From: a virus
Lineage: Duplodnaviria > Heunggongvirae > Uroviricota > Caudoviricetes
DNA length: 64,000 nucleotides
Reading direction: 5' to 3' (one strand)
IMG/VR virus record: IMGVR_UViG_3300011614_000002
Location: 1-64,000 of that record
The stretch's first letter is position 1. Every line of letters begins with the position of its first letter. Of this stretch, positions 23,549 to 48,558 are shown one piece after another. Position numbers and translations under genes: made by a program. The notes under the pieces were generated by a model. It saw nothing but the letters and a program-made list of their open reading frames with translations. It made no database searches and was not told the origin of the DNA.

Positions 23549-23592
23549 CTCAACTTGAGATTCACCATAGGGTGACGTATAGTGTGCGTCAT
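23549..23592. promoter_or_regulatory. Two palindromes upstream of higB, candidate HigA operators
   Basis: TCTCAA-C-TTGAGA and TGACG-N9-CGTCA. Confidence 0.5.
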
Positions 23593-23616
23593 GCGGTGCA
23601 GTATCGAAGGCATGGA

Positions 23617-23904
23617 ATGCGGATTATCAGCGAGGCCAGGATTCGAGAAGCGAAGGTGAAATGGCCCCAGGCCGCCACCGCGCTGGAAGCCTGGCGACAG
23701 TTGTTCAAAAACAACTCACCGAAGGACTTTGCGCAGCTCAAGCAGCTGAATCCAGCCGCCGACAAGTACAAGGACCTCTACATCCTGGACGTCGGCGGTA
23801 ACAAGATCCGGATCATCGTCACCATTCACTTCAAGGTGGACACGCTGTACATCCGGCACATCTTGGATCACAAAGAATACGACGCGGGTAAGTGGAAGAA
23901 CTGA
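23617..23904 (+). CDS. higB: HigB-like (RelE/ParE superfamily) type II toxin
   Basis: Small basic protein. Gene order is toxin first, then an HTH antitoxin. AAGG Shine-Dalgarno. Confidence 0.65.
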   Translation: MRIISEARIREAKVKWPQAATALEAWRQLFKNNSPKDFAQLKQLNPAADKYKDLYILDVGGNKIRIIVTIHFKVDTLYIRHILDHKEYDAGKWKN

Positions 23905-23906
23905 CC

Positions 23907-24332
23907 ATGAGCGCATTACTCAAGCAAGCGATTGATCACTGGGAATACGTCGCCCCGATCGCGAACAAGCCGACCAACGACGAAGAGTATCAGCGTGCTG
24001 TATCAGCGCTGGACTACCTCCTGGACCGTGTCGGCGAAGACGAGAACCACCCCTATAGTGGCCTGATCAAGCTGCTGTCTGACGGGATCGAAGCCTATGA
24101 CGCCGATACCTACCCAGACGAGCCTGTAGAGCCGCGCGACATGCTGGCTTTTCTGATGGAACAGCACGGGCTGCGCCAGGGTGACTTGCCAGAAGTAGGC
24201 TCGCAGGGCGTGGTGTCCGAAGTGTTACGTGGCAAGCGGGAACTTAATCTGCGCCAGATCAGAGCGCTGGCAGTACGGTTTCAGGTTTCGCTTTCCACGT
24301 TTATCCCTGATGTACGTATCTCAACGCACTGA
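23907..24332 (+). CDS. higA: HigA-like antitoxin with C-terminal XRE-type HTH
   Basis: C-terminal HTH segment LRQGDLPEVGSQGVVSEVLRGKRELNLRQIRALA. Starts 3 nt after the higB stop. Confidence 0.65.
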   Translation: MSALLKQAIDHWEYVAPIANKPTNDEEYQRAVSALDYLLDRVGEDENHPYSGLIKLLSDGIEAYDADTYPDEPVEPRDMLAFLMEQHGLRQGDLPEVGSQGVVSEVLRGKRELNLRQIRALAVRFQVSLSTFIPDVRISTH

Positions 24333-28795: not shown

Positions 28796-28801
28796 CTGAA
28801 G

Positions 28802-29809
28802 CTATAGCTCAGTTCGACTGAGCAGCTCGGCAGTTCCATCAGGAAACAGCTCTAGGTCGCAAACTTCAGCCTTGAAACCATGAGACTTGAAGTATTGGCC
28901 GATTTCTTCGAAATACTCCCTGTTCTCCGTAAAATTACACAAGTTGATAAGCGGGATTGCCGGCTTTGTCAGAGAAAATCCAGGCATTTCAGCCAGAACA
29001 CCTTCCTGAGAATGACTGAGCAGTACACCTACATTTCCCACGTTCAGCATGGTTTGGTAGGAGTCCACTCCGTTCACATTTGGCCACCTTCTCTTAAGGC
29101 CAGTCGCAATTGCGCTCAGAATTCCAATCTCTTCGAGATACAGCAGCTGACCGAATGGGAAGCCTGCATTCTCTAAGGCTCGGTTTTGGGTATCGTCTTG
29201 GAGCCTGAAGATAAACCCTTGCAGGACAAAGGGCGCAAGCTTGGCTATGAGTTCTGCATCTTCGGTGCTTAGATTCCGGATAAGGTCCAGGGTCCGCAAG
29301 CTATGGCTTCCAGGTGCTTTTACCTCGCCTGCGAGCAGCCGACCCCATATCTGCTGTAGGTCTTCAGCCGAAACCTCTCCTGCGTAATCTCGCCAACGCC
29401 GGATCCAGTCGCCGTCCACCGTGCGCTCTGGAGCCGGCGATGGATCCTGATGTAACTCTTCCTCAGCGCGCAGCAAGGCCTTAGCAACGTTTACTTCCCT
29501 GCGCAGGAGTTCATTGGTGTGCTGGTCTTGAACGATCGCAGGCAGCTCATCCAAATCGAATTCGGGCTCCAGTCGTTCCTCCACGCGAGCAATCCTGCGA
29601 TGGCGCGCTAGCTGGAAATCGGCCAGGGTCTTCTCACCACTCAGGATCTGTGCCGCATCACGCTCCCCCTGAGCCTCGATCCGCTTCGCGTCTGCCCGGC
29701 CATAGGCGTCGCGTCGCATCTGACCTGGTCTAAGCAAGGCGCCAACGCCGTTATCCGCGCAGGTCCTCCAAAGCGTCTGAACAAGCTCAGAAAAATTCCA
29801 ATCACCCAT
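28802..29809 (-). CDS. hypothetical protein (335 aa) in a low-GC island; candidate defence/moron gene A
   Basis: GC roughly 52%. No TM segment. No recognisable catalytic motif. Confidence 0.55.
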   Translation of the reverse strand: MGDWNFSELVQTLWRTCADNGVGALLRPGQMRRDAYGRADAKRIEAQGERDAAQILSGEKTLADFQLARHRRIARVEERLEPEFDLDELPAIVQDQHTNELLRREVNVAKALLRAEEELHQDPSPAPERTVDGDWIRRWRDYAGEVSAEDLQQIWGRLLAGEVKAPGSHSLRTLDLIRNLSTEDAELIAKLAPFVLQGFIFRLQDDTQNRALENAGFPFGQLLYLEEIGILSAIATGLKRRWPNVNGVDSYQTMLNVGNVGVLLSHSQEGVLAEMPGFSLTKPAIPLINLCNFTENREYFEEIGQYFKSHGFKAEVCDLELFPDGTAELLSRTEL

Positions 29810-29879
29810 CGGCTCTCTCCCAGGTGTCGACTTGTTCTATGACCACAGGAAACTCGCTTTTCTCGCTGTACGTGGATGG

Positions 29880-30344
29880 CAAAAATCCTAATCGGAACGT
29901 GCACAGCAGTGAAGTGGCCTAATTTCAGTGCAAGTGCTTGATAGCATTATAATATTTTTTTGAATTACTCTTGATTTAGTGTTTTTAAATGTTAAAACAT
30001 AAATACCCGAGGCTAATTATTATGATTTGTCGTTGTAGGGGGAATAACATAAAGAGAAAATAAACATGAGAAAATTACTTAAATATATAAGCATTGCAAT
30101 CACATTAGCAGTAACCGCATCTATCCCATCGTCTACAGTTCAACAATCTACGTCAGCGAAAGCACAGCAGGTGCTAGCTGCACCCGCTGCTTTAGGCGGA
30201 GGATGATAGCTCTTGGCGGCAGTTATGCCGCTCGGTCCGTCTCTCAGACGAATGTTACGGCGCCAGAGTCAGCGGTAAGCGTCCAAGCCATCGTATGGGA
30301 CTATGGCCAACGTGAGACGATGACTACCTTTTGATTACATAAAG
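29880..30344. other. AT-rich (about 30% GC) non-coding segment inside the low-GC island
   Basis: Extreme local GC drop. A 47-codon signal-peptide ORF (30066..30206, plus strand) lies inside. Confidence 0.6.
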
Positions 30345-31196
30345 CTACCAAAGCGGCTTTCTGACCTTAGTCTCTATTGGCTCCATGCGTATTTCATAAA
30401 GAGCAGCCAACACAGGAGCACGAACCCTCATGTCCGTGCCGAACCAGGAATTGTTCGCCATCTTTGCAGTGCTTTTTCTATCAAAATAATACGATTTAAA
30501 AAGATATACAGTGCTCGAATGTGTTAACAACGTGGTATGTGTCATACCCTTTAGAAAGAAACTTTGCTCTTTTAGTACAATTGAGGCGACCTCGTAATCC
30601 CACAGTAGGTCTCGGGTCCCTGGCATAGCCTGCGGCATATCTATTATTATTTTATTTGCAACTTCGAAGCGCTGTCTGTCTTCAATAATGTCGGCAACTT
30701 TAATTTCTGACAATTTTGCTGATAAATCGTCCAAAAACATATTCTGCCAGTGACTACCGACGATTCTTCTCTCTATACCTTGCGGAAGATGCCCATAGAA
30801 ATCGGCAAAATCCGTGCCTAAATTCGCTAAACGCCCCAACACCTTGAACAGATCTTCGAGAAACGTCTTGGATGTTGGATCAAGCGAGCGTATAGACTCT
30901 GACATCTTAGGTATCAGGGAGTCGGCCTCTTTCGCAATGTATGTGATTCTGGCCGTTTCTCTCGCTTTTCTGTACTGATACACGGCGAACACAAACGTTA
31001 TCACCGTAACAGCTTGACCTAGAAATTGAGCAAATTCATTCAGTCCGCTTTTTGTTACTGGCACGTAGACGACTACGGCGACAAATACAATGAACGCGAG
31101 TGAGGCAAGGCAAACAGGTAGAAGTCTAGGGTTTAGGAATTGGACGTCTAGGTAATTACCTAATCTCACTAGGTATAAGCGAATTGAATTCCACAT
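30345..31196 (-). CDS. 2TM membrane protein with cytoplasmic C-terminal domain (283 aa); candidate defence/moron gene B
   Basis: GC roughly 45%. TM helices LLPVCLASLAFIVFVAVVVYV and VTVITFVFAVYQY, followed by a soluble domain of about 200 aa. Confidence 0.6.
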   Translation of the reverse strand: MWNSIRLYLVRLGNYLDVQFLNPRLLPVCLASLAFIVFVAVVVYVPVTKSGLNEFAQFLGQAVTVITFVFAVYQYRKARETARITYIAKEADSLIPKMSESIRSLDPTSKTFLEDLFKVLGRLANLGTDFADFYGHLPQGIERRIVGSHWQNMFLDDLSAKLSEIKVADIIEDRQRFEVANKIIIDMPQAMPGTRDLLWDYEVASIVLKEQSFFLKGMTHTTLLTHSSTVYLFKSYYFDRKSTAKMANNSWFGTDMRVRAPVLAALYEIRMEPIETKVRKPLW

Positions 31197-31372
31197 AATT
31201 CACGCTGAATCCTTCCGGGCAATCCTTATAGCGATTCTAGCCTGAAGTCCCAAGACTTTGAGATAGATAGTGGGCGTAGCTGCAGCCTTGGCTTTCGTGC
31301 AGCATCAGGTGCGCACACGGAGATGAGCGTCGGGTGCCCTACCCAGCTCGCCTTCGCATAGTATTGTCCATG

Positions 31373-31717
31373 TCACCGGCCGCAATACCCATCGTACCGA
31401 TCGCCAGGCTCCTGCAGCTCCATCGGCATGTCTTCCCGCGCCATGTAGAACGGCACCCAGCCCGTCCAGCCGCCATTGGGCAAGAACTTCGACCGGATCC
31501 ACGTCTGCGCCTTGGCCTCGAAGGCGACGTCGCCACAGACAAAGCCAGAGGCCTTTCCTTCCCGCACATTGCGGACCTTCACTGAGTCGGGATTGCCCAG
31601 TTCGGACATCTCGCCCGCAGCGTCTTTAGCTTTGGATTCGAGCACGGGATCCGAGAACCCCATCAGGGCGAACGCTGCACCGCAGATGACAACTACGGCG
31701 CCCAGGGACTTCTTCAT
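31373..31717 (-). CDS. secreted/periplasmic small protein (114 aa)
   Basis: Signal peptide MKKSLGAVVVICGAAFALMGFS. GAGG Shine-Dalgarno 6 nt upstream. Divergent from the giant gene. Confidence 0.5.
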   Translation of the reverse strand: MKKSLGAVVVICGAAFALMGFSDPVLESKAKDAAGEMSELGNPDSVKVRNVREGKASGFVCGDVAFEAKAQTWIRSKFLPNGGWTGWVPFYMAREDMPMELQEPGDRYDGYCGR

Positions 31718-31804: not shown

Positions 31805-34800
31805 ATGAACAGACCTCACGCACCCCTGGCAGGGACTCTCCGGGTCCTACTGCTCAAAGCATCTAAGATCGCGCACCAGGCGGGTTTCTACCTGCAGGGT
31901 GGCCGCTGGCACAAGGTATCTCCGGAAAAGCCGGCCCCCGCCGGGCATCCGGTGCTTGCGCAGAAGCCCGAATCGGGCCATACGCGCATCACCGGCGAGA
32001 TGTGGCAGCAGCTGCACGATCAGCATCCAGCCAACTCGAACAAGGCGACGTACAGCAAGAAGCTGGACAAGCTCAAGGAGGCTTACCACGCGGGCGATAC
32101 GCACGCGATCCTGGGCGCCAGCTACCCCAACGACACCACCCACAAGAAGGTCGCTCATGTAGCGAACTTCGTTCTGGCCAACCTGGGCAGTGAGCACCAA
32201 GTGCATGCAGGGCTGAAACAAGGAACCCACCCTGCCCTCTCCCAGGCCCCCGCCGCTCCGGCACCGGCGCCGACGAACACCGAGTCCAGCCCCGCAACCC
32301 CCGCCCCAGCACCTGCAGCTGCCGCGCCCAAGGCCGGTAATTCCAGCATCGCCCTGACCCACACCCACTGGCAGTCCATCAAGGACGCTCACCCGGACAA
32401 CTCCAACAAGAAGGCCTTCGTCAGCAAGGTCGAGAAGATCCAGCAGGCCCACAGCGCCGGCGATGCCGATGCCATCCTGGGCATGAGCTACCCCAACGAC
32501 ACCACCGGCAAGAAGGTCGTGCACGTGGCCAACGCGGCCCTGGCGGACCTGGGTAGTGACCACAAGGTCCACGCCGGCCTCAAGCAGGACAGCCACGACG
32601 CCCTGGCGCAGAAACCAACGGAAACCCCAGCAGTTACCCCGTCTGAACCTGGCCCCAAGGACGGAGACACCAAGCAGGGCGCCGAAGGCGAACTGGTCTT
32701 CAAGGATGGCCACTGGCACAAGCAGGAAGACGCCAGCACCCGTACGGCCAGCACTGATGGCGCGACGGCCACAGACGTGACACCCAAGGGCCACGGTATC
32801 GATAGCCCGGAATCGTCTGACGTCGACATGGACAGCTACGCCGACCAGTACGGCGAGATGGTCAAGCTGGAGCAGGCCGGTGACGTCCAGGGCTTGAAGG
32901 ACTTCGCCGCCAAGCACCACAACGACCCCCAGCTCAAGAACCTGGCGCAACTGGCGAACCAGAAGCTCACCAAGCTGGCATCTGCGGCGGCGGAGAAACC
33001 AGCGGAAACGCCTTCGGTTACCGGCGGCACCGAAATCGAAAAACCCAAGCAGATCGTCGCCCCGACCGCTGCCGAGGTCGACGCGCTCAAGGCCGATCTG
33101 AAGGCCCTGGGCATTGGCGTGCGCGTGCTCAAGAGCAGCGGCGGCCTGATCGACGTCCGGCCCAAGCTGCCCGCAGGCGATGCCCTACCGCTGTTCACCC
33201 AGGACCAGTTGGCTCAGGTGGCCCAGGTCCTGGACAAGCACGGCATGACCTATGAGCTGTGCGCCTGGGCGGGCAAGACCATGGCCAGCTACTTTGCCGG
33301 TCAGGAAAAGAACGCCCTGAACCTGGTAGGCATGGCGCTGAACCACGACGGATCCCGCGGCACCAAGCCGCTGCCGGCGGCCACTGCCCCCGAGAAACCC
33401 ACGGTAACCACCGCTGAAGGCAGCGCAGTTACTGGCTTGGCCATGCCCAAATTCCTCGAAGGTGCCAAGACCACCGGCGTAGTGGCGCATTACCAGAAGG
33501 TGGCGCAGAAGGTGCTGGACCTGGCCTCGGCGGGAGATGCGGCCGGCCTGGCGCAGTTGAAGGCTGACGGCATGGCGCCCAAGACCGACGGCAAGGTCGG
33601 CAATACCTGGAAGGGCAAGACCGCCAACAGCAAGATCCTGCTGGCGCTGCATGATGCGGCCGCTACGCAGGTTGCCGGTGGCGCAGCCGCTCCTGCAGCA
33701 GCTGAAACCACCCCTGCTGCTTCCGCTCCGGACGCACCGACTGTTCCCGATGCGGCCCCGGCTGGCGGACTGCCAACCCCGCCCAAGTTCAAGAGCAACG
33801 ATGCACAACACCTGGCTAACGTCTGGCATCAGGTAGCCGAGCAGGGCAAGTACGCCGCGATAGCCCTGAGCGTAGAACAGGCCTCGACCACTACAGCCCT
33901 TGGAAACATTCCCGAAGCACCAGAGCTGGTGAGCTATGGGAAGGAGTTGCTAGCTAGCATGGCCGCGGCTGGCGCTGGCCCCAAAGAGGGCGACACCAAG
34001 ATGGGTGTCGAAGGCATGCTGGTGCTCAAGGATGGCCACTGGGTCAAGATGGACCAAGACGCTCACCCCATTGACGCCATTCCCATGCCGCCCCTGGAAG
34101 GCTTCTACAACCCGCAGAAGGTAGGCATTGCCCTCCAGGAGCTGAAGGCCAAGGTTAAGGCAGAAGGTCCGTCCGCCCTGAAGGGTGTGACGAAGAAGAT
34201 GTCCGCCACCGGCAAACTGATCACCAAGGTCGGGGGCTACAAGATCACGGGACACGTGAGCTCGGACAGTTCCCATTCGGCGGTCTACCACTACGTCGAA
34301 GCCCTGAAGACCGTGGCGGGCTCCCCGAAAAAGACCAAAGCCGCGGCAGCATCTGCAGCAGCAGCTGGCCCCGCGCCCTACGCGCCGCCGGAACCTGCGT
34401 CGGAATCCATAGACGGCTGGAAGCAGATCGGCCCCCAGGGTGGCTCCAACCCCGGCGGCAAGTTCGTAGACGACCAGGGCGTCGAATGGTACTGCAAGTT
34501 TCCCGGCGATCCGGACGTGGCCAAGAGCGAAGTGCTGGCGGCGAAGCTGTACGAAGCCGCGGGGATCACCGGCCAGGACTGCAAGCTGATCACCAAGGAC
34601 GGGAAGCTCGGCATCGCCAGCAAGTGGGTGGACGTCCAGAAGGCCGGCCCGGATGCCCTGGCCAAGGCCGAAGGGGTCGCCGAGGGCTTTGCCGTCGACG
34701 CCTGGCTGGCGAACTGGGACGTGGTCGGCCTGGCGTTCGATAACCTGCAGCTGGATGCCCATGGCCAGGCTGTGCGGGTCGATGCTGGCGGCTCCCTGGA

Positions 34801-36241
34801 GTACCGCGCCCAGGGCGGCAAGAAGGCCTTCGGCGAATCGGTCTCGGAGATCGACACGCTGCGCGATCCGAAGATCAACCCCCAGTCGGCCCAGGTCTTC
34901 GGCCACCTGACCGCCGCGGACATCACCGCCTCGGTGGCCAAGGTTGCCGAGGTCCCCGACGACGCCATCTATGACCTGGTCATGGAGTTCGGCCCGGGCA
35001 GCATGGCCGACAAAGCCCACCTGATCGACACGCTGATCGCCCGCAAGCAGGACCTGCTGGCCAAGTACCCCAAGGCGGCGAAGAAAAGCCAGAAAGCCAA
35101 GGTGAAGCCTGAAAAGCAGGATCCCACCGCCTTGAAGGTCGACCCCAGCCAGCTGCCGCAGCCGCACGACTTCCACAACTGGAACGGCCCAGGCAACGGC
35201 CTATCGTCCAAGACCCACGTCAACGACATGAACCTGAAGGCCGAGCAGGATCTGCTGGACTTCGCGGCCAAGGGCAACCTGATCGCGCTGAAGGACTATC
35301 ACTACGAGGCGGTCGACAAGGACACCGGCGCGCCGACAGGCCAGCAGCACATCGAGCAGCACCCGTCGCAGCACGTGAAGACCTACTGGTCCGACCTGGT
35401 CTCCACGCTGGGCTACATCGCCAACCCGCCGGAACAGCTCAAGCGCTTCAAGTCGGTCGTTGCCGCCGGCCTGAAGAAGGTCTCCGACGCCTTCGCATCG
35501 GCAGGCTATGGCACGACTACCTCCAAGGTGGCGGCGAACCAGCGCCTGGCGTTCTGGATCGCCCTGGGCCACACCAAACCGGTCGAAGCCCTGGTGCCCA
35601 ACCACGCCAGCCTGGAATTCCAGTCGACCCCTGTGGGCGTGCCCAAGATGACCGAGCAAATGAAGGCCGCGGCCAAGCAGGCCTATGCTAGCCTCGCTTC
35701 AGATCGCCTGGTCAAACGCTTCATCAACGGCATCCAGGCGTCGGGCACCTACAACGACAACTTCCGTGACGGCAAAATGGTCACTCACGATGGGAAAGAC
35801 GCTGTCGGCATGGTGCTCGATGCCTACTCCTACGCTACTGAGAAGCCCGAAGGCTTCGAGGTGTACAAGTGGGTGAGCTTCCCTGGCGACATGGGCAAGC
35901 AGATGCTGAACGCCAAGCCAGGCACCGTCTTCCAGAACCCGGGATCCATGTGCTGTTCGTACAACCCCACGGCCACCAGCGGCTTCGGTCCGGATCGGAT
36001 GCGGATCCGCTTCGCCAAGGGCTCGAAGGCCGTCGATAGCTTCGGCTCCGGTAGCTTCAGCAGTGAGCAGGAGATCACCACCCTGCCCGGCCAGCGGTTC
36101 GTCATCCTGTCGAGCAAGAAGGTGCACTGCCCGGTCAAACACAAGGAGCGCATCGAGCTTGACGTGCTGATGCTGCCCCCAGATGACACCTATGTGGCCG
36201 AACTGGAAGCCAATAAGGGGAAACATGGACAATCGTCTTGA
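31805..36241 (+). CDS. giant multidomain (polyvalent-type) protein: tandem N-terminal repeats, kinase-like core, C-terminal ADP-ribosyltransferase-like domain
   Basis: - N-terminal tandem repeat units: two copies of about 120 aa (YPNDTT(H/G)KKV(A/V)HVAN...VHAGLKQ).
- Second repeat family: KDGDTKQGAEGELVFKDGHWHKQ and KEGDTKMGVEGMLVLKDGHWVKM.
- Kinase-like core: KFVDDQGVEWYCKF, DAWLANWDVVGLAFDN and RVDAGGSLEY, resembling a HipA/PI3-4K-type catalytic loop and DxG.
- C-terminal ART-like motif: GSFSSEQEITTLPGQRFVI, matching the toxin (Q/E)xE-hhLPG signature, with a preceding S/T-rich stretch. Confidence 0.8.
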   Translation: MNRPHAPLAGTLRVLLLKASKIAHQAGFYLQGGRWHKVSPEKPAPAGHPVLAQKPESGHTRITGEMWQQLHDQHPANSNKATYSKKLDKLKEAYHAGDTHAILGASYPNDTTHKKVAHVANFVLANLGSEHQVHAGLKQGTHPALSQAPAAPAPAPTNTESSPATPAPAPAAAAPKAGNSSIALTHTHWQSIKDAHPDNSNKKAFVSKVEKIQQAHSAGDADAILGMSYPNDTTGKKVVHVANAALADLGSDHKVHAGLKQDSHDALAQKPTETPAVTPSEPGPKDGDTKQGAEGELVFKDGHWHKQEDASTRTASTDGATATDVTPKGHGIDSPESSDVDMDSYADQYGEMVKLEQAGDVQGLKDFAAKHHNDPQLKNLAQLANQKLTKLASAAAEKPAETPSVTGGTEIEKPKQIVAPTAAEVDALKADLKALGIGVRVLKSSGGLIDVRPKLPAGDALPLFTQDQLAQVAQVLDKHGMTYELCAWAGKTMASYFAGQEKNALNLVGMALNHDGSRGTKPLPAATAPEKPTVTTAEGSAVTGLAMPKFLEGAKTTGVVAHYQKVAQKVLDLASAGDAAGLAQLKADGMAPKTDGKVGNTWKGKTANSKILLALHDAAATQVAGGAAAPAAAETTPAASAPDAPTVPDAAPAGGLPTPPKFKSNDAQHLANVWHQVAEQGKYAAIALSVEQASTTTALGNIPEAPELVSYGKELLASMAAAGAGPKEGDTKMGVEGMLVLKDGHWVKMDQDAHPIDAIPMPPLEGFYNPQKVGIALQELKAKVKAEGPSALKGVTKKMSATGKLITKVGGYKITGHVSSDSSHSAVYHYVEALKTVAGSPKKTKAAAASAAAAGPAPYAPPEPASESIDGWKQIGPQGGSNPGGKFVDDQGVEWYCKFPGDPDVAKSEVLAAKLYEAAGITGQDCKLITKDGKLGIASKWVDVQKAGPDALAKAEGVAEGFAVDAWLANWDVVGLAFDNLQLDAHGQAVRVDAGGSLEYRAQGGKKAFGESVSEIDTLRDPKINPQSAQVFGHLTAADITASVAKVAEVPDDAIYDLVMEFGPGSMADKAHLIDTLIARKQDLLAKYPKAAKKSQKAKVKPEKQDPTALKVDPSQLPQPHDFHNWNGPGNGLSSKTHVNDMNLKAEQDLLDFAAKGNLIALKDYHYEAVDKDTGAPTGQQHIEQHPSQHVKTYWSDLVSTLGYIANPPEQLKRFKSVVAAGLKKVSDAFASAGYGTTTSKVAANQRLAFWIALGHTKPVEALVPNHASLEFQSTPVGVPKMTEQMKAAAKQAYASLASDRLVKRFINGIQASGTYNDNFRDGKMVTHDGKDAVGMVLDAYSYATEKPEGFEVYKWVSFPGDMGKQMLNAKPGTVFQNPGSMCCSYNPTATSGFGPDRMRIRFAKGSKAVDSFGSGSFSSEQEITTLPGQRFVILSSKKVHCPVKHKERIELDVLMLPPDDTYVAELEANKGKHGQSS

Positions 36242-40898: not shown

Positions 40899-43508
40899 AT
40901 GACGCAGCACAAGATCCGCCTCCCCGCACCCTTCCCTATCCAGCAGACCATTCTCCAGGGCGCTCGGCGTTTCAATGCCGTGTGCATGGGGGAAAAGGGC
41001 GGCAAGACCACCCTGGGCATTGAGGCCTTGGTCGCCAGCAGGCGTGGGGTGCTCAACGGCCGCGCGCCGGTCGCCTGGTTCTCCGCCAGCAAGGACGAAC
41101 TGGCCAAGGTGCGCCGGCGGGTGACACGCGCCCTGGATCCCTTCATTCGCCGGCGAGTGAATGCCCGCCAGCTGGAGCTGCACAACGGGAACACGCTCAG
41201 CTTCTTTCACCTGGAAGAGCCCCTGGATGTGTTCGAGCAGTTCGGCCTGATCGTGGTCGACGATGTGCGCTCGATCGCTAACTTCCTGGACCTGTGGGAG
41301 GACTCCCTGAGCGAGTCGCTACGGGTGCACCGCGGCCAGGCCTGGTTCCTGTCCTCGGCCTACGGCAAGCGCAATGACTTCTACCGGCTATTCGAGCTGG
41401 GCCGGGGCGATCCGGACTGGGCGCTGTGGCAGTTCAACAGCTATGCGAACCCCCATCTGCCTGCGGTAACTGCCAGTGAAGCCGAGTCAGTTACCGAGCT
41501 GGAATGGCGGCAGCGCTTCGGCGCCGAGTTCTTGGACGTGGCGATCGAGCTGGATGCTACCCAGCGCATCATTGGCCATGATGAGACCTTCCTGCAGTGG
41601 TGCGAGCGCCTGGAGCAGACCGGCCTGAAGGTGGACGGCATCCCCTTCACGCTGTCGGACCGGCCCGCCATGCGCTTCGTCTACGACCTTATCCCGGCGA
41701 CCCGCCAGGACGCGTTCCTGCGCACGGACGTCATCATGAAGTGTACCCAGGTGGGCTTCACGGTCATGGAAATGCTGGCCATGATCTACCTGGCCATCAA
41801 GTTCGCGCCGGCCAAGATCGGCATGTTCATGCCCTCGCAGATGCTGGCCAGCGGCAAGAGCTCCGAGCGCTTCATGCCCATCGTGAAGACGGTGCCCGAA
41901 GTGCACCGCCTGATGATCGACAAGCACGCCAGCGGCTCTAAGGGCGGCGAAGGTAACGTGCTGATCCGGAACTTGGGACCGAGCCGTTTCCACTTCCTGT
42001 GGACCAGCGGCAAGACGGCGACCGAATCCTTCCCGATGGACGTGGTGTCCTTCGACGAGGTGCAGGAGATGGCGGTGGCCGACATGGAGAAGACCAAGGA
42101 GCGACTGTCGGCGTCGCAGCTGCGCTACACCCTGATGGGCTCGACGGCCAACTGGCCGGACAGCGACATCCACTGGTGGTACAAACGCGGCACCCAGCAC
42201 CAGTTCCACACCCGCTGTCCGCATTGCGGCACCGGCCAGGTGCTCGATGAGCATTTCCCCCAGTGCATCGGCTACGACCCTGAGCAGGCGCGCCTGGTGC
42301 AGCGCGAGGGCATGCCCACGGTCTTCGGCGAATACCGGTACCGCTGCCATTCCTGTTCCGGCTGGATCGATGATCCCCAGGCCGGCGAGTGGATCCCGCG
42401 CAACCCAGAGGCGGAAATCCGCTCGGTGCACTTCCCCCAGTTCCTGTCGCCCACCATCTCGGCGCGGGAGATGATCGAGTCCTACCGCAACGCGGACGAC
42501 ATGAAGAACTTCTTCAACCGGAAGCTGGGCAAGCCCTACACCGACCCGTCCCAGGTCCCGGTCAACCTGGAGATGCTGAACGAATGCGCCCGGATCGGTA
42601 TGGAAGCCGGCCTGGTCTGGGAGCGCAGCGGCCGCGGCACCTTCATGGGTATCGACCAGATGGGCCAGTTCAACGTGGTGGTCATTAAGAAGCGCCTACC
42701 GGACAACCGCCAGGCCTATGTCCACATCGAGCTGATCTTCAACAACAGCCCCTTCGATCGCTGCTCCGAGCTGATGGGCCAGTACGGCGTCCAGTGCTGC
42801 GTGGTCGAGGCCTTGCCCAACTACAACGACGCGCACAACTTCGCCCAGGCGCACCCCGGCAAGGTCTTCCTGGCCGGCTACGGCAACATGGATGGGCAGA
42901 TGATGATCTGGGGTGACGCGCCCAAGCAGAACGCATCCACTCGGCGGACGGCGGAAGAGGCCCAGGAGCTCTACACGGTGCGGCTGGACCAGTACAAGTG
43001 CATGCAGGTCAGCATGAAGCGCTTCCAGAATGCCGTGTGCCTGTTTCCGGATCCGGACGGCCTGGTGCAGGAAGTGCTGGAGAAAGGCCAGATGGTGACC
43101 CGGGCCGTGTGCAAGGAGGTGGCATTCTTCCACTTCACGCGCACCGCGCTAATCGCCGAGCAGGACGAGGAAGAGAAGAAATTCCGCCGGCGCGTCGTCA
43201 AGGTCGGTATCGACCCCCACACCAGCTACGCCAACATGCTATGTGACGTTGCCTGGGCGCGCGCGCATGGAACTGACACATTCATCCTGCCGGATGCCGG
43301 AGACGCTACCAGCAGCGTGGCTGAGCCCGTTGCGGCGAGGATGTCGACTCCTACTGCCAAACTGATCGAGCATCTGAGCCAGCTTGTTGAAGAAACCTGC
43401 GGTAACTGCGTAAATCGGGACCCGCTGACCAATGCCTGCCGTGAGCTTCAGGCGACCGTGCGGCCAGCGGATCCGGGGTGCTGGGCCTACATTGCCAGAT
43501 CGAGCTGA
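40899..43508 (+). CDS. terminase large subunit, GpA (lambda-type) family with extra N-terminal P-loop domain
   Basis: - GpA-type Walker A KCTQVGFT (compare lambda KSAQVGYS).
- Walker B VVSFDEVQE.
- Zn-ribbon CPHCG...CHSC.
- The N-terminal 220 aa carry a second terminase-like motif set: MGEKGGKTT, LIVVDD and SSAYG. Confidence 0.75.
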   Translation: MTQHKIRLPAPFPIQQTILQGARRFNAVCMGEKGGKTTLGIEALVASRRGVLNGRAPVAWFSASKDELAKVRRRVTRALDPFIRRRVNARQLELHNGNTLSFFHLEEPLDVFEQFGLIVVDDVRSIANFLDLWEDSLSESLRVHRGQAWFLSSAYGKRNDFYRLFELGRGDPDWALWQFNSYANPHLPAVTASEAESVTELEWRQRFGAEFLDVAIELDATQRIIGHDETFLQWCERLEQTGLKVDGIPFTLSDRPAMRFVYDLIPATRQDAFLRTDVIMKCTQVGFTVMEMLAMIYLAIKFAPAKIGMFMPSQMLASGKSSERFMPIVKTVPEVHRLMIDKHASGSKGGEGNVLIRNLGPSRFHFLWTSGKTATESFPMDVVSFDEVQEMAVADMEKTKERLSASQLRYTLMGSTANWPDSDIHWWYKRGTQHQFHTRCPHCGTGQVLDEHFPQCIGYDPEQARLVQREGMPTVFGEYRYRCHSCSGWIDDPQAGEWIPRNPEAEIRSVHFPQFLSPTISAREMIESYRNADDMKNFFNRKLGKPYTDPSQVPVNLEMLNECARIGMEAGLVWERSGRGTFMGIDQMGQFNVVVIKKRLPDNRQAYVHIELIFNNSPFDRCSELMGQYGVQCCVVEALPNYNDAHNFAQAHPGKVFLAGYGNMDGQMMIWGDAPKQNASTRRTAEEAQELYTVRLDQYKCMQVSMKRFQNAVCLFPDPDGLVQEVLEKGQMVTRAVCKEVAFFHFTRTALIAEQDEEEKKFRRRVVKVGIDPHTSYANMLCDVAWARAHGTDTFILPDAGDATSSVAEPVAARMSTPTAKLIEHLSQLVEETCGNCVNRDPLTNACRELQATVRPADPGCWAYIARSS

Positions 43509-43813
43509 TCCCGCTCCTGATCTCTCTGCTGCGCCATGTATTCATCATGCGGCAGCACATCGAGCAGAGCCCAGGGGGTGAGCTTCATCGCGCGGATGGC
43601 GTCCTTTGCCTCCATCTCAGCGGACAGCCGGAATAGGCTCTTGCTGAAGTGCACGTGGCGCCGTGTAGGGCCATTGTCGCGCCGTACCGTCATGATGACG
43701 ACAAGGCCGCGGGTGATACCGGGTTTGTCCTTGGCCAGCACCTGCTTGGCGCGATGCGCAAGCACAGGCAGACCGAAATGGCGACGCATACTTTCTTCGG
43801 TGATGGTTCCCAT
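43487..43813 (-). CDS. hypothetical protein (108 aa), possibly a RelE/ParE-like phage protein
   Basis: Small basic ORF overlapping the terminase 3' end by 22 nt. Confidence 0.4.
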   Translation of the reverse strand: MGTITEESMRRHFGLPVLAHRAKQVLAKDKPGITRGLVVIMTVRRDNGPTRRHVHFSKSLFRLSAEMEAKDAIRAMKLTPWALLDVLPHDEYMAQQRDQERDQLDLAM

Positions 43814-43941
43814 CAGTTCCCTCTCCTTTCCGTTGGTATAGCTGTGGCGGCTATCAGTGCGGCAGCTCCAGCTGCCGTAATTACTCCGTCCCAGGCGGTG
43901 GCGTCACCAGGGCCGTAGGGCTATATCAGCAAAAACACTGG

Positions 43942-44934
43942 CTAAATGTCCAGTGCTATTTGATCCTTTGCGACAACCTGGTTCAACGAGGCGAGTTTGC
44001 TCAGCCGGGCTTCGGCTTGCTCCCAGGTTTCTCCGGGGTTGGCGTTCTTCGAAATGTAATCGCGTGACAAGGGTCCCAAATTTCTCAAGGGGGCCTTTTC
44101 GACGGATGGCGCATCCTGAGGTGTGGTCTGCTTGGTTTGACTTGAACCAGTTGGTCCGACTGGTGTTACGGCGCTGGTTGCCATCGCGACAGAGCGGAAC
44201 GTGAACTTCAACCGGTCGGCCACGCGCCCCTTCTTGAGCACCTCGTATTCGACGAACATCCCGGCGCCTTCAGGCAGCTCGGCAATCGCAGGATCCAGCA
44301 CACGCGCCTGGAGGTTGTTGATCCGTTCATAAGCCTTGCCCAAGCAGAGCATTTCGCGGAAGTCGGTCAGCGACACCACGTAGTACCCGGCCCCGTCGAT
44401 TTCGTACCGCACCAGCAGCTGGAACAGGCGTATGGCATGGATGGACTTGAGCTGCACCACTCGGCGCAGACGGTACCGCGTGAAGTCACCCGTCAGGGCT
44501 GACAGGTAGGGCTCTATGCTGGGCGTGAAGAAGAGTTCGATCCAGGGCTCATAGCGTGGCGTGCCCTTCTCGAAGATCCAGCGGAAGTCGCTGTCCTTCG
44601 TGTTCTTGCCTGTCCCGCTGATGATGCGTACCGTCCGCTCATACAGGGTCGACGCCGCCGTCTTGATTGCGTCATAGGCCTGCTTCTCATCCATGCTGTA
44701 CGTGGCAGCGAACTCTCCGGCGTAGATCCGGATCGGGTTGATCAGCGGTTTGCGGGAATCGATCTTGGACAGAGCCAGCAGCAGCAGGCGCTGTTCCTGG
44801 AGTGTCAGCTTGTAAGCTGCTTCGATCAGGTGGTTGGACTTAGCGATCCAATCACCTTCCTTGGGGATTAGGACATCGTCGGTCATGACGACTCTCGTTG
44901 TTGGGTTGGCGGGGCCAGCATAGACCTCAATCAA
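43942..44934 (-). CDS. repA: Rep_3-family (RepA/pi-like) iteron-binding replication initiator
   Basis: N-terminal segment IAKSNHLIEAAYKLTLQEQRLLLLALSKID is typical of Rep_3 initiators. An iteron array lies immediately upstream. Confidence 0.75.
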   Translation of the reverse strand: MIEVYAGPANPTTRVVMTDDVLIPKEGDWIAKSNHLIEAAYKLTLQEQRLLLLALSKIDSRKPLINPIRIYAGEFAATYSMDEKQAYDAIKTAASTLYERTVRIISGTGKNTKDSDFRWIFEKGTPRYEPWIELFFTPSIEPYLSALTGDFTRYRLRRVVQLKSIHAIRLFQLLVRYEIDGAGYYVVSLTDFREMLCLGKAYERINNLQARVLDPAIAELPEGAGMFVEYEVLKKGRVADRLKFTFRSVAMATSAVTPVGPTGSSQTKQTTPQDAPSVEKAPLRNLGPLSRDYISKNANPGETWEQAEARLSKLASLNQVVAKDQIALDI

Positions 44935-44954
44935 CCCACTTGCTACAGGTTTAT

Positions 44955-45400
44955 TTTATGTAGCACGAAGAGGATAACCGGCTCAGGAAAGTCCGAAATT
45001 TGTAGCACCGAGTCGGAAATTTGTAGCTGAAAGTCCGAGATTTGTAGCTGAGAGTCGGAAATTTGTAGCACCGACCCCGCTGGAACCCGCGTCCTGTAAG
45101 GCTTCGCGGGGGTCCTATAAACAAGAGATAAACAAGAATAAAGGTTTTTATAAAGGGACAGCCTGTGGAAAGGCTTGTCCTGGGATCGGGAGAGCGGCAG
45201 TCAGACCGGAAAAGTCCGAAATTTGTAGCACGAACCAGCTAGCCGCACACAGCGACACGCCACCTGCTGCATAGGTCATAGCAAAAGTCCGAAATTTGTA
45301 GCACGAAACCCTGAGTAACCGTCGGAGACGATAGTCGGTTCCTGGTATGCAGATCCGCCCGAAACGCTCGGTGAAAAGTCCGAAATTTGTAGCACGAAGG
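44955..45400. repeat. Iteron array: 7 full and 1 partial copies of AAGTCCGAAATTTGTAGCACGAA with a central AT-rich segment (candidate oriV)
   Basis: Copies at about 44955 (partial), 44989, 45011, 45030, 45052, 45211, 45284 and 45374. AT-rich segment at 45120-45170. Confidence 0.8.
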
Positions 45401-45719
45401 GGGAGAGGGGAGGCGCCGTCTGTTCCGGCGTGTCAGCGACCCTATGTCTGATCCCGTTGCCCAATCGCGACAGGTCTATCAGCTTCTGGGATGGCCCCTG
45501 GCGAGGAACGTTCGAGAACAGCCATGGCCATGCTGCGGAGGTTTTTCAATGTCCAGGCACTCACCGCTTATCCTGGTCCGGTCCACTCGCTGATGCGAAC
45601 CCACCGGCTAGGCTCACCGCTCTACGACATCCCGGTTACCCCATCCGGAGCGCTTTTGGTGACCTGAGTCATGTGCGGCAATGAGCAAATCTTGCTGTCA
45701 CGACCTGTCGGTCGGGCAA

Positions 45720-45929
45720 TCACGCCCGCATCGCAACAGCTACGGCATAGTGATCGGGCTTGCTGCGCAGCAACCGATTGGTGGCCAGGCGAGTTCTGCG
45801 CTTACGCGCCAGATCGGCAGAGAAGTTCGTGCAGCAGGTAGAACACACGTAGCGTCCACCGGCCCGGCGATCTGTCCGCAAAGCCACGGGCTTCCAGCGC
45901 ATGCAGGCGTTGCAGAGAAATTCGCTCAT
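45720..45929 (-). CDS. zinc-ribbon small protein (69 aa)
   Basis: CNAC...CSTCC. ATGA-coupled to the dut stop. Confidence 0.4.
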   Translation of the reverse strand: MSEFLCNACMRWKPVALRTDRRAGGRYVCSTCCTNFSADLARKRRTRLATNRLLRSKPDHYAVAVAMRA

Positions 45930-46387
45930 GCGCCTGTGCTCCCGAAGCCACCGGAACCGCGGGTCGTTTCTCCCAGTTCCTGCACCGCCACGGGCTGGAC
46001 CTTGACCGCGGGAACCAACATGCCCTGGGCGATCCTGTCGCCGGTGCGCACAACCAAGTGATTCCGGTTCAAGCCGGCGGCCTGTTCGTCGTAATCGGCG
46101 CACAGACGGACCATCAGTTCGCCTCGGTAATCGGCATCGATAACACCGGTGGTATTGGCGAGCCTGATTGCGTGCTTGAAACCGTGGCCACTGCGGGAGA
46201 AGACCAGCAGGCACCAGCCTTGGGGGATTTCAAAGGCAAGGCCGGTACGAAGGGTAACTGGCCTGTCAGGACCGACAGTTACCGCTTCGCCATCGACGAT
46301 CGCGTAGAGGTCAAAGCAGGCCGCGCCGTCGGTTCCGTAGGTTGGTAGCTGGGCGGCAGGGTGGAGTAGCTGGACGTTAAGCTGCAT
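45926..46387 (-). CDS. dut: dUTP pyrophosphatase (dUTPase)
   Basis: dUTPase motifs RSG, GVIDADYRGE, GDRIAQ and RGSGGFGSTG are present. Confidence 0.85.
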   Translation of the reverse strand: MQLNVQLLHPAAQLPTYGTDGAACFDLYAIVDGEAVTVGPDRPVTLRTGLAFEIPQGWCLLVFSRSGHGFKHAIRLANTTGVIDADYRGELMVRLCADYDEQAAGLNRNHLVVRTGDRIAQGMLVPAVKVQPVAVQELGETTRGSGGFGSTGA

Positions 46388-46802
46388 CGGGTACCTTCTG
46401 GGCAAGTTCGAGCTGTCGGGCGGTTGCAAGTCGGTCCCTGCGGTCCGCGGCTTCGCAGCCACGGCACCGGGAGAAGTAATGGCCGCGGGAGGGGATCCAA
46501 CGGTAGAACTCCGCATCCTGGGGGTGGAACAGGCCGCAACGACGGCACAGTTTCTCCCTCCCCAATTCCGTGGTGCGGTACATCTCCAGGTCCTTCAGAC
46601 GGACCAATTTCGGCCGTTCTTTGATCTCCAGGGTCTGAGCCGCAAGGCTGTACCCCTGCCACATCGTCTCGACGGTCGGGTCCAGGTAGTGGCCAGTAGG
46701 AGTGCACGCCAGCTGGGTCGCGAAACCACGGTTCTCCATGGCGATTTCGAAGGCATTGCGGAACGGGTCCAAGCTGAAGGCTCCAGGGTGACAAGAGCCC
46801 AA
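46377..46802 (-). CDS. hypothetical Cys-containing protein (141 aa)
   Basis: ORF. A reverse-orientation GTCACGAC motif lies 10 bp upstream of the start. Confidence 0.5.
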   Translation of the reverse strand: MGSCHPGAFSLDPFRNAFEIAMENRGFATQLACTPTGHYLDPTVETMWQGYSLAAQTLEIKERPKLVRLKDLEMYRTTELGREKLCRRCGLFHPQDAEFYRWIPSRGHYFSRCRGCEAADRRDRLATARQLELAQKVPDAA

Positions 46803-46875: not shown

Positions 46876-48558
46876 ATGACAGACATCGCCCTTCACACCG
46901 CCCACAACCCAGCAGCGCCCCAAGATGAGCGACACGACGCTATGCGCGTGGCTCAGGTAGCGGCGATGCCCAATTCCGTTCCGGACATGCTGCCGCTGGT
47001 GCAGTACGTCCAGCAGCTCTACCAGGAGGAACAGTTCGCCAAGGCGCTGACCAACAACGCTGCGCCCCATCCCAGCAGGGCCGCCCGCGCTGGCACGCCC
47101 GGCATGCAGTCAGTCTGGCTGGACGACCAACGCATCCAGACCATGGGCGACTGGTACGAAAGGCCCAGCGCTTTCAGCTTCGACACCATGCGCCAGATGG
47201 TCGACAACACCCCTGTGCTCGGCGCTGTAGTCCTGACGCGACAGCGCCAGATCAAGCGCTTCTGCCGCGTGCAGCAGGGCGGGCGCGGCCCGGGTTTCAC
47301 GATCGAGCTGAAGGACCCTAGCGCGACCCAGGGCCGCCAGGAAAAGCAGGTGATCCAGCGCCTGGAGTCCTTTTTCACCAACTGCGGCTGGGAATCCAAC
47401 CCAAGGCAGCGCCAGCGGCTGAAGCGCGACAATTTCTCCGGCTTCATGGCCAAGCTGGTGCGGGACAGCCTGATCATGGATAGCGCCCCCATCGAAACCG
47501 AGTACAAGCGCGACCGGAAACGCGGCATGGACGGCTTCTATGCCGTCGATGGCGGGACGATCCGCCTGTGCTCGGAGGTGGGCTACAGCGGCGACGACGA
47601 AATCTTCGCCCTGCAGGTGGTCGGCGGCCAGATCCGCACGGCCTATACCTATGACGACCTGATCTACGTCCCGCGCAATCCGCGCACCGAGGTCACCTAT
47701 GGTGGCTATGGGATGTCGGAAACTGAGCTGCTAGTCAGGGTAGTTACCGGTTACCTGAACGCTTTCACCTACAACACCAAGTATTTCGACAGCAACGCCA
47801 TCCCCAAGGGCATGCTTCATCTGTCGGGCAACTACGACGAAAGCGACATCAACAGCTTCAAACGCTACTGGAACGCGATGGTGAAGGGCATCAACAATGC
47901 CTGGACCTTGCCGGTGATGGTGTCCAAGAACCAGGAGTCGCGCGCAGCGTTCGAGAAATTCGGCGTTGATGTCGACGACGTCATGTTCGCGAAGTGGATG
48001 ACGTTCCTGACCAGCATCATCTGCGCCATCCATGGCATGGCGCCCGATGAAATCAACTTCGAGAGCTTCACCGCCGGCACCAGCTCGCTGTCTGGCAGCG
48101 ATACCGAAGAGAAGCTGATCAACTCCAAGGACAAAGGCCTGCGCCCACTGCTGGCCCACTTCGAAGACACCTTCAGCGATTACATCGTCTCCGACTTCTC
48201 CGACCAGTACGTCTTCCGCTGGACCGGCCTGGACGATCAGAAGCCGGAAATCGTCTGGGGCCAGCAGCAGGCGTTGCTAACCGTCAACGAGGCGCGCAAG
48301 GCCAACGGCTACGACGAAACCGCAGAGGCCTGGGGCGAAGCCCCGCTGAATCCAGCTCTGCTGGGGGTGTATCAAGGTGCCCAGCAGCAGGACAGTCAGG
48401 ATTTCGGCCAGCCGGGCAGCTATGACTTGTCGGATAGCCGCGACAGCCAGAATGACTTCGGCGATCCGGCGGATGGCGAGCAGGCCCAGGCAGAAGGCGA
48501 CGATCCCGACGAGATGGCCAAGAGCTTTGGCCTTCCGATACTGCGGATCGACGTATGA
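46876..48558 (+). CDS. portal protein (putative)
   Basis: 560 aa with an acidic C-terminal tail. First gene of the head module, followed by MuF-like, scaffold and capsid genes. Confidence 0.6.
   Translation: MTDIALHTAHNPAAPQDERHDAMRVAQVAAMPNSVPDMLPLVQYVQQLYQEEQFAKALTNNAAPHPSRAARAGTPGMQSVWLDDQRIQTMGDWYERPSAFSFDTMRQMVDNTPVLGAVVLTRQRQIKRFCRVQQGGRGPGFTIELKDPSATQGRQEKQVIQRLESFFTNCGWESNPRQRQRLKRDNFSGFMAKLVRDSLIMDSAPIETEYKRDRKRGMDGFYAVDGGTIRLCSEVGYSGDDEIFALQVVGGQIRTAYTYDDLIYVPRNPRTEVTYGGYGMSETELLVRVVTGYLNAFTYNTKYFDSNAIPKGMLHLSGNYDESDINSFKRYWNAMVKGINNAWTLPVMVSKNQESRAAFEKFGVDVDDVMFAKWMTFLTSIICAIHGMAPDEINFESFTAGTSSLSGSDTEEKLINSKDKGLRPLLAHFEDTFSDYIVSDFSDQYVFRWTGLDDQKPEIVWGQQQALLTVNEARKANGYDETAEAWGEAPLNPALLGVYQGAQQQDSQDFGQPGSYDLSDSRDSQNDFGDPADGEQAQAEGDDPDEMAKSFGLPILRIDV

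Follow-up and report, generated by a model that had tools for sequence, protein, structure and literature searches.

Phage-plasmids are usually described as carrying both replication and partition genes (rep and par) and as lacking an integrase. The model Rep_3 iteron replicons are those of the Pseudomonas plasmid pPS10 (RepA/oriV) and of mini-F (RepE/ori2). Both place roughly four tandem iterons (~21-22 bp each) next to rep, along with an AT-rich region, a DnaA box, and an inverted-repeat operator in which the iteron half-site recurs. Phages with plasmid replicases, and phage-plasmids that possibly alternate between integrated and plasmid states, have already been described (PMC7969092, PMC10879196, PMC7157519), and for the cluster A mycobacteriophages Miko, Rachaly, and Jeeves, repA together with its flanking intergenic DNA is both necessary and sufficient for plasmid replication (PMC7157519). 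Here, we analyze 64,000 nucleotides of Caudoviricetes DNA (IMG/VR record IMGVR_UViG_3300011614_000002, positions 1 to 64,000; this whole stretch is called the window), in which a first-pass annotation had placed a minus-strand block with a Rep_3 initiator, iterons, an AT-rich segment, and dut between the terminase and portal genes. All of these are present, close to where they had been placed. What the analysis shows is a predicted complete Rep_3 iteron replicon of the pPS10 RepA/mini-F RepE type, held in a 1.57-kb cassette within a hot spot of a ~88-kb myovirus that encodes an integrase. Judged by its sequence features, it is highly probable that this replicon is functional. The fuller statement that we favor, in which the cassette would also let the phage persist in lysogeny, facultatively, as a low-copy plasmid, either in addition to integrating or in place of it, comes out slightly better than evenly balanced. 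As a replicon it is unremarkable for its family; the novelty lies in the carrier lineage, the presence of rep and int without par, an iteron shared with an unrelated phage-plasmid family, and the occurrence of two Rep/iteron pairs in a single slot of sister phages.

The Rep initiator, its origin, and their kin

The initiator contains both domains of the family at full length (Rep3_N, E 5.6e-34, over positions 1-140 of 141; Rep3_C, E 1.2e-14, over 1-59 of 59), arranged as tandem winged-helix domains, WH1 and WH2. Its closest solved structures are pPS10 RepA (1HKQ, E 3e-19) and RepE (2Z9O/1REP), with R6K pi also among the best. The protein likely starts at the ATG at 44886, because this position aligns with the starts of homologous rep genes, including those of the P2-like elements described below; the same 314-aa gene is called on a contig that is 100% identical to the window. 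The only hairpin found in a terminator scan of the block lies at the rep stop codon. Past WH2, Rep carries a C-terminal tail of ~70 aa (window 43942-44150), which is missing in the 253-aa Rep of the sister phage L042 and in the 242-aa Reps of the P2-like elements.

Read along the rep-sense (minus) strand, the origin opens with three dispersed iterons; these are followed by an AT-rich segment and four tandem 21-bp iterons, and then by a degenerate DnaA box and an inverted repeat that lead into rep itself (Table 1). The first-pass annotation had counted 7.5 iterons of 23 bp; there are indeed seven full copies, all in a single orientation and adjoining rep, but the unit is 21-25 bp and the supposed half copy is one arm of the inverted repeat. 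The array is not a chance occurrence, as a 21-mer, allowing up to three mismatches, matches six of the seven iterons and nothing else in the 64 kb, with 0 matches expected from 100 shuffles. By analogy to pPS10 and mini-F, the inverted repeat is a putative operator through which Rep dimers would act at the rep promoter. The AT-rich segment is a putative DNA-unwinding element, and the dispersed iterons are putative copy-number-control sites. With full-length Rep3_N and Rep3_C, non-random iterons, and an operator-like inverted repeat in place, the initial designation of the locus as a plasmid-type iteron replicon holds. If it behaves as its family does, Rep monomers would occupy the tandem iterons and, aided by host DnaA and DnaB, melt the AT-rich segment to initiate theta replication. 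Dimers of Rep would bind the operator and thereby repress rep, and the dispersed iterons would titrate or handcuff Rep and so cap the copy number.

The closest kin of this replicon are found in P2-like elements of Pseudomonas, ~38 kb in length (37-39 kb) and recognizable by gpU, gpD, and Ogr/Delta, whose Reps are 55-57% identical to that of the window. One of them comes from a P. luteola isolate and is deposited as a plasmid (FDAARGOS_637 plasmid unnamed2, NZ_CP044087.1), and the others are IMG/VR and JGI contigs. The P2-like iteron, TTCGTGCTACAAATTCCGGACTTTT, is identical to that of the window at 24/25 positions, and the two origins are collinear throughout, from the three dispersed iterons through the AT-rich segment, tandem iterons, DnaA box, and half-iteron operator to the rep start. 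The AT-rich segment of the window can be aligned with its P2-like counterpart, CTTGTTTATAG, and at the position aligned with the degenerate DnaA box of the window the P2-like origin has a perfect one, GTTATCCACA. These comparisons show Rep and origin alike to be homologous, and the window cassette and the P2-like Pseudomonas phage-plasmid replicon accordingly belong to one replicon family. The P2-like elements differ from the window phage in having a ParA operon beside the replicon, a serine recombinase in place of the tyrosine integrase, and the perfect DnaA box. Between their ParA operon and iterons, they also carry an AT-rich, 11-bp-periodic array of ATACGTAT-type units (11457-11568 in L066; 9422-9523 in L049), probably a partition centromere; this array is absent from the window cassette.

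Replicons of this kind are rare among phages. Relatives of Rep occur in only 15 of 50,697 phage records, including Burkholderia KS14, which we take to be a plasmid prophage, and Escherichia phage D6, presumably a P1-like phage-plasmid. A Rep hidden Markov model run over all of the fetched loci detected Rep_3 only in the window's own species, in L042, and in the P2-like elements, and a megablast search with the 3.5-kb block against phage and plasmid collections returned no match.

The action of selection on the cassette could be assessed by comparing the window with a strain of ~96% nucleotide identity (ENA contig k141_18739). The rep genes differ by 21 synonymous and 3 nonsynonymous codon changes, and in the origin the iterons and operator are identical at 181/185 positions (97.8%) versus 286/350 (81.7%) for the remainder. 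The tandem iterons alone match at 83/85 bases and the operator at 25/25, the AT-rich segment is near-invariant, and the dispersed iterons, 96-100% conserved, stand as islands amid strongly diverged spacers. Because of the synonymous excess in rep and the conserved iteron islands, we conclude that the cassette is maintained by selection and is not decaying. The opposite possibility, a non-functional remnant left by plasmid cointegration, would fit the degenerate DnaA box, the lack of a promoter call, and the lack of par genes; set against the 21 to 3 ratio in rep, iteron islands of 96-100% identity, and two full-length Rep domains, it is scarcely credible.

The terminase-portal slot and the limits of the cassette

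The first-pass annotation regarded the interruption between terminase and portal as unusual, on the premise that the two genes are normally adjacent, and we ran the comparison of gene order that bears on this premise. In the 31 relatives whose fetched locus includes both genes, the gap is anywhere between 37 bp and 7.7 kb wide (median, ~2 kb). It holds three tRNAs in Aeromonas phage ST4, small open reading frames (ORFs) in Pseudomonas phage Touem01, and elsewhere DUF932, RtcB, the superinfection-exclusion protein gp17, RNase_T, and HD and HTH proteins. Given this variation in size and cargo, the gap is therefore a hot spot for accessory genes, not an anomaly, and the premise does not apply to this lineage. 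We also considered whether the slot is a dedicated site for maintenance genes and rejected the idea, as its cargo in 17 relatives is miscellaneous.

Much of the block in this slot also occurs in relatives that lack Rep. Homologues of orf108 occupy the same place in L042 (47% identity) and in a relative without Rep, L020 (40%), and ST4 and Touem01 have analogous minus-strand ORFs over the end of terL. The dUTPase gene is well supported (Pfam dUTPase, E 1.9e-20; PHROG 135, E 1.3e-56; gene calls on the 100%-identical contig), and a minus-strand dut lies in the gap of six relatives, 5/6 of which have no Rep. A Proteo-phage-1 RNA motif adjoins dut-orf69 on its 3' side and recurs in the gap of the Rep-less L020 (13433-13514, minus strand). 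This RNA is identical at 83/83 positions between the two strains, while its flanks differ by 2-6%, and no mention of it was found in the literature searched. Because orf108, the dut operon, and the RNA are all present in relatives without Rep, they are not part of the replicon cassette, and the earlier assignment of dut to the replicon module falls away.

The remaining segment is sharply bounded. DNA homology to the Rep-less L020 resumes at 45405, directly outside the outermost iteron, and because the rest of the block is found in Rep-less relatives, the predicted replicon cassette is confined to ~43,830-45,404, a length of ~1.57 kb. Some 40 relatives lack it. This absence, together with the exact resumption of homology at the outermost iteron, bears out the proposal that the iteron module is a mosaic insertion.

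Table 1. Annotated features of the window, by position
Feature	Coordinates	Strand	Remarks
Primase-helicase	2-2683		N-terminus cut by left window edge; full protein 956 aa
DUF2806 protein	28802-29809	-	In low-GC island
283-aa ORF	30345-31196	-	In low-GC island; no family match
Large terminase TerL, 869 aa	40899..43508	+	Pfam GpA_ATPase, E 1.4e-17; left border of cargo slot
orf108, 108 aa	43487..43813	-	Overlaps terminase 3' end; conserved backbone gene; no Pfam or PHROG match
rep, Rep_3 initiator	43942..44886	-	314 aa from ATG 44886 (likely start); longest frame 43942-44934, TTG start
Inverted repeat, TGCTACA-11 nt-TGTAGCA	44941..44965	-	7-nt arms 100% complementary; made of iteron half-site; putative operator
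Degenerate DnaA box, TTATCCTCT	44969..44977	-	2 mismatches to TTATCCACA
Four tandem iterons	44987..45071	-	21-bp period; ~100 bp upstream of rep ATG
AT-rich segment	45113..45160	.	80% AT over the 40-mer 45115-45154 versus 64% GC in the genome; between the two iteron groups; putative unwinding element
Three dispersed iterons	45208-45232, 45281-45305, 45372-45396	-	Perfect 25-mer TTCGTGCTACAAATTTCGGACTTTT in all three; putative copy-number-control sites
Proteo-phage-1 RNA motif (RF03044)	45531..45613	-	Rfam, 59.9 bits versus gathering score 42
dut operon	45720..46772	-	orf131 (131 aa, Cys-rich, PHROG 3273) 46377-46772; dUTPase 45926-46387; orf69 (69 aa) 45720-45929
Portal	46876..48558 (longest frame)	+	Pfam Phage_portal, E 2.8e-16; gene callers' start 46942; right border of cargo slot
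Tail sheath	60632-62353		Followed by tail tube at right end of window

The sister phage L042, an 89,443-bp contig whose TerL and portal are 76% and 80% identical to those of the window, has a Rep_3 gene in the same terL-portal slot. Its product is only 39% identical to the window Rep, and it is accompanied by its own 22-bp iterons, AGCAGGAATCCTTAGTCGATAC, with a perfect DnaA box, TGTGGATAA, beside them. While the window Rep is 55-57% identical to the Reps of P2-like phage-plasmids, the matches of the L042 Rep, at 49-50% identity, come from large and 35-kb Pseudomonas plasmids. Since plasmid Reps resemble each of the two more closely than the two resemble one another, the comparison points to either two separate acquisitions or one replacement of a cassette. 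One could go further and regard the slot as an exchangeable replicon socket, in which sister phages independently took up Rep_3/iteron cassettes of differing specificity from the Pseudomonas pool of plasmids and phage-plasmids, giving switchable episomal or integrated lysogeny and iteron-based displacement of P2-like phage-plasmids. We consider this quite unlikely; were it true, replicon specificity would be a weapon in the competition between mobile elements. As a separate observation, L042 also has an abiF RNA motif (RF03085, 61.3 bits) at 2139-2175 on the minus strand, ~8 kb upstream of its terL.

Another possibility is that the cassette does not serve phage replication at all and is either a passenger, a minimal selfish replicon hitch-hiking in the slot, or an incompatibility determinant that displaces a resident P2-like phage-plasmid by titration or handcuffing. 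This would account for iterons that match the P2-like ones at 24/25 positions though the Reps are only ~55% identical, for a cassette that comes without par, and for the competition- and defense-type cargo (a superinfection-exclusion protein, RtcB) otherwise found in the slot, and two Rep/iteron specificities in one slot of sister phages are what would be expected if specificity tracks competitors. An iteron decoy, however, would need neither an intact AT-rich element nor a DnaA-box remnant, an operator, and a strongly purified rep, and the idea is a speculative one, which leads us to rate it as decidedly improbable.

The carrier phage, its integrase, and its physical state

Phage content extends along the whole 64-kb length of the window (GC content ~64%), which spans the genome from primase to tail tube and thus covers ~64 of ~88 kb, with ~25 kb omitted. 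TerL is 69% identical to that of ST4, 67% to that of Touem01, and 58% to those of Pseudomonas phages Jeremy and Dolphis; ST4 and Touem01 are myoviruses of ~90 kb, and identities to these two and the IMG/VR relatives lie between 49 and 76%. Further TerL relatives were found in Enterobacter, Escherichia, and Yersinia phages, in Bordetella phage PHB04, and in ~40 IMG/VR and genome contigs. Virion and packaging genes could be identified for terminase, portal, sheath, tube, tape measure, baseplate, and fiber. No lysis gene was recognized by domain in the phage genome, and the ORFs at the collinear position, where Touem01 has its endolysin, have no Pfam match. The carrier is a predicted temperate myovirus of ~88 kb related to Touem01 (Toucanavirus) and ST4. 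The primase at the left end, called P4-type in the first-pass annotation, matches Toprim_3 (E 1.5e-9) and PHROG 35358, "DNA primase" (E 3e-253), with weak P-loop matches in addition; there was no match to a D5_N or P4 helicase domain in this protein, whose N-terminus is cut off by the window edge. Relatives without Rep retain the same full replication module of primase-helicase, DEAD helicase, SSB, and RecT/exonuclease.

No integrase or recombinase domain was detected in any plausible reading frame of the 64-kb window, and it was from this absence that the first-pass annotation had argued for plasmid maintenance. The observation stands for the window and fails for the genome. By following near-identical contigs beyond the window edge, we found that the omitted ~25 kb of two same-species strains, k141_18739 and SRR5240561_332 (~96-97% nucleotide identity), carries the gene for a 406-aa tyrosine integrase (domains Arm-DNA-bind_3 and Phage_integrase), positioned after HU and a 120-aa ORF; it was thus only the placement of the window edges that made an integrase seem to be lacking. 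The integrase is 75% identical in the L042 contig and 72% identical in the Rep-less L020 contig, and homologues are present in ST4 and in Touem01, where the gene lies between the lysis and the recombination/replication genes, the arc that the window omits. When the Touem01 integrase was used as a single query, no IMG/VR relative was found, while the integrase of the species itself did find relatives. The suggested check of the rest of the element thus yielded an integrase, and with respect to attachment sites, no tRNA-like or tmRNA fragment was found near int as a sign of attP. These data speak directly to the original version of the phage-plasmid idea, an obligate, integrase-less phage-plasmid with dut in its replicon module. 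The genome does assemble as a circle and the 64-kb window does lack an integrase, but the gene is present in both same-species strains and conserved in the L042 and L020 contigs, and dut, orf108, and the RNA occur in relatives without Rep, which makes this version very improbable.

Partition functions, common though not universal among phage-plasmids, were likewise sought. No CbiA/ParA/AAA_31 or ParBc domain was present among the ORFs of the window or the precomputed Pfam hits of the remaining ~25 kb. The protein at 18197-18880, labeled "ParB-like" by PHROG, was rejected as a partition protein, as it has a nuclease domain, neighbors TerS and Mom, and lacks a ParA partner. More broadly, TerS-like, ParB-like nuclease-domain (no Pfam ParBc), and Mom-like DNA-modification proteins lie in a row at 17607-19647 on the plus strand, far from terL, and this cluster probably serves packaging or DNA modification, not partition.

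As to physical state, Logan contig SRR1749415_217 (87,133 bp) matches the window at 100% identity over every stretch fetched. Position 1 of this contig was read directly and corresponds to window 27,149, and its last base, calculated on the assumption of collinearity, corresponds to window ~28,319. The two ends thus lie ~1.2 kb apart inside an intact C5-methyltransferase gene (26565-28523), with no host DNA at either. Because both ends map inside this one gene within the window, the window closes a circle at ~88.3 kb. Other datasets gave contigs of 88,452, 88,995, 89,106, and 75,784 bp, at least two of which break at different internal positions, and no contig of >200 kb bearing Rep, the tail tube, or the integrase was found. 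Among the best 120 integrase homologues (54-97% identity), none is in a contig of >122 kb and ~20 are in contigs of 84-97 kb. Distant relatives occur both as extrachromosomal records (Rhodovastum plasmid RHOApe, L003; a 93,795-bp Paraburkholderia contig, P0076) and in contigs of megabase scale (a 5.35-Mb Kaistia chromosome; a 2.46-Mb contig of a metagenome-assembled genome). No mention of the sequencing-run accessions was found in the literature. An episomal prophage would produce such an assembly pattern, and so, just as readily, would DNA from virions or from induced phage.

A phage-plasmid lifestyle is at this point plausible but unproven, and it is still plausible because the phage is recovered as circular stand-alone contigs and shares its replicon with P2-like phage-plasmids. 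In the scenario that we favor, the cassette would give low-copy plasmid replication during lysogeny, on top of the primase-helicase module and the tyrosine integrase. Several observations weigh against it. Circular stand-alone contigs are equally expected from virion DNA or induced phage in metagenomes, and relatives without Rep are also recovered as stand-alone contigs of ~90 kb, so that the pattern is not specific to Rep. The phage encodes a tyrosine integrase with an arm-binding domain, and integration could be its real lysogenic mode. As no ParA or ParB was found, a low-copy plasmid of 88 kb should be unstable, and the P2-like donors keep ParA. In the origin itself, the DnaA box is degenerate, with 2 mismatches, and a promoter scan of the block called no sigma-70-like promoter.

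Some of these same observations could be explained if the Rep/iteron system were an auxiliary origin for productive growth, with theta firing soon after infection or induction, in the manner of lambda O/ori, raising the number of templates ahead of primase-helicase replication and headful packaging, and the prophage maintained by the integrase. The conservation of the arm-binding integrase across the lineage, the partition genes that were not found, and the distant relatives in large contigs, namely the 5.35-Mb Kaistia chromosome and the 2.46-Mb metagenome-assembled contig, would all be consistent with such a role. Rep, however, replaces nothing, since relatives without it keep the full replication module, and dispersed control iterons with an autoregulatory operator typify stringently regulated plasmids and not a lytic origin of the run-away kind. 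Moreover, P2-like elements that carry ParA and are found in plasmid records use this replicon too, and the Rep-bearing species was never found in a chromosome-sized contig. We consider an auxiliary origin unlikely and retain facultative plasmid maintenance as the preferred reading.

Several further observations concern the lineage and the window at large. Across the lineage, with or without Rep, the conserved integrase is almost never in chromosome-sized contigs, and some relatives have been deposited as plasmids; the whole ~90-kb lineage may be largely episomal, or the integrase may serve another function. Three independent Logan assemblies (SRR1749415, SRR14611552, and ERR12551527) end within ~100 bp of window 27,150-27,250, and no repeats or composition anomaly were found that would explain assembly breaks in the methyltransferase gene; the shared break site may be a polymorphic target-recognition region or a sequence common to another element in the samples. 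In TerL, the N-terminal ~215 residues (window 40899-41550) precede the GpA ATPase domain and are uncovered by matches to the PHB04 and Rhodovastum terminases, and they may be an extra fused domain. A 1478-aa protein (window 31805-36241, plus strand) has no Pfam or PADLOC match; ST4 has, at the equivalent position upstream of NUDIX, a large gene annotated as an ADP-ribosyltransferase. A low-GC island at 28800-31400 (44-53% GC versus 64% overall) has no PADLOC match and looks like recently acquired cargo. Finally, a gene pair at 23572-24332 on the plus strand encodes a HigB-like toxin (Pfam HigB_toxin) and, downstream of it, a partner protein, and the sister strains L082 and L084 have an additional YafO-toxin pair at this place. 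The HigB pair corresponds to PD-Lambda-2 components A and B and is the sole PADLOC match in a scan that also took in the low-GC island and the large unknown proteins; it could be an addiction or defense module.

Comparison with known systems

An integrase-encoding myovirus lineage of ~90 kb appears to have acquired only a minimal rep-plus-origin cassette, and this cassette belongs to the replicon family of P2-like phage-plasmids. Should the cassette prove functional, it would illustrate concretely how a replicon passes between phage and phage-plasmid families that are unrelated, and it would be a candidate intermediate between integrative and episomal lysogeny. At 1.6 kb, it is small enough for direct tests of replication and incompatibility and has potential as a compact vector origin for Pseudomonas.

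Among plasmids, pPS10 and mini-F offer the best solved-structure matches to the window Rep, their initiators being WH1 plus WH2 proteins like it. Sequence identity to them is low, and the window replicon differs in being embedded in a phage and in having an extra cluster of three dispersed iterons. The replicon of P1 (RepA, incC/incA iterons, parABS, Cre-lox), a low-copy plasmid prophage, resembles it in its iteron-binding initiator, in a second iteron cluster for copy control, and in having a tyrosine recombinase alongside, and the Rep of Escherichia phage D6 is a distant match (26%). P1, however, has parABS and no chromosomal integrase, Cre serving to resolve or circularize, whereas the recombinase of the window phage has a P4-type arm-binding domain, characteristic of true integrases, and no par was found in this phage.

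Within its own lineage, the window phage shares with Touem01 (Toucanavirus emiw), ST4, PHB04, Dolphis, and Jeremy a TerL of 47-69% identity, gene order, the tyrosine integrase, the primase-helicase, and a variable terL-portal gap. None of these phages has Rep_3 or iterons. In Touem01, whose authors predicted it to be temperate (PMC11256456), a ParA-like gene is found upstream of terL instead, and in ST4 the slot holds tRNAs. The RepA-type cluster A phages provide a parallel outside this lineage, as they too are temperate, with a small repA transcribed opposite to the structural genes and a replicon that only a few phages of a large lineage possess. There, the integration cassette has given way to parABS, and the Rep family and host phylum are unrelated, whereas the window phage retains its integrase and no parABS was found in it.

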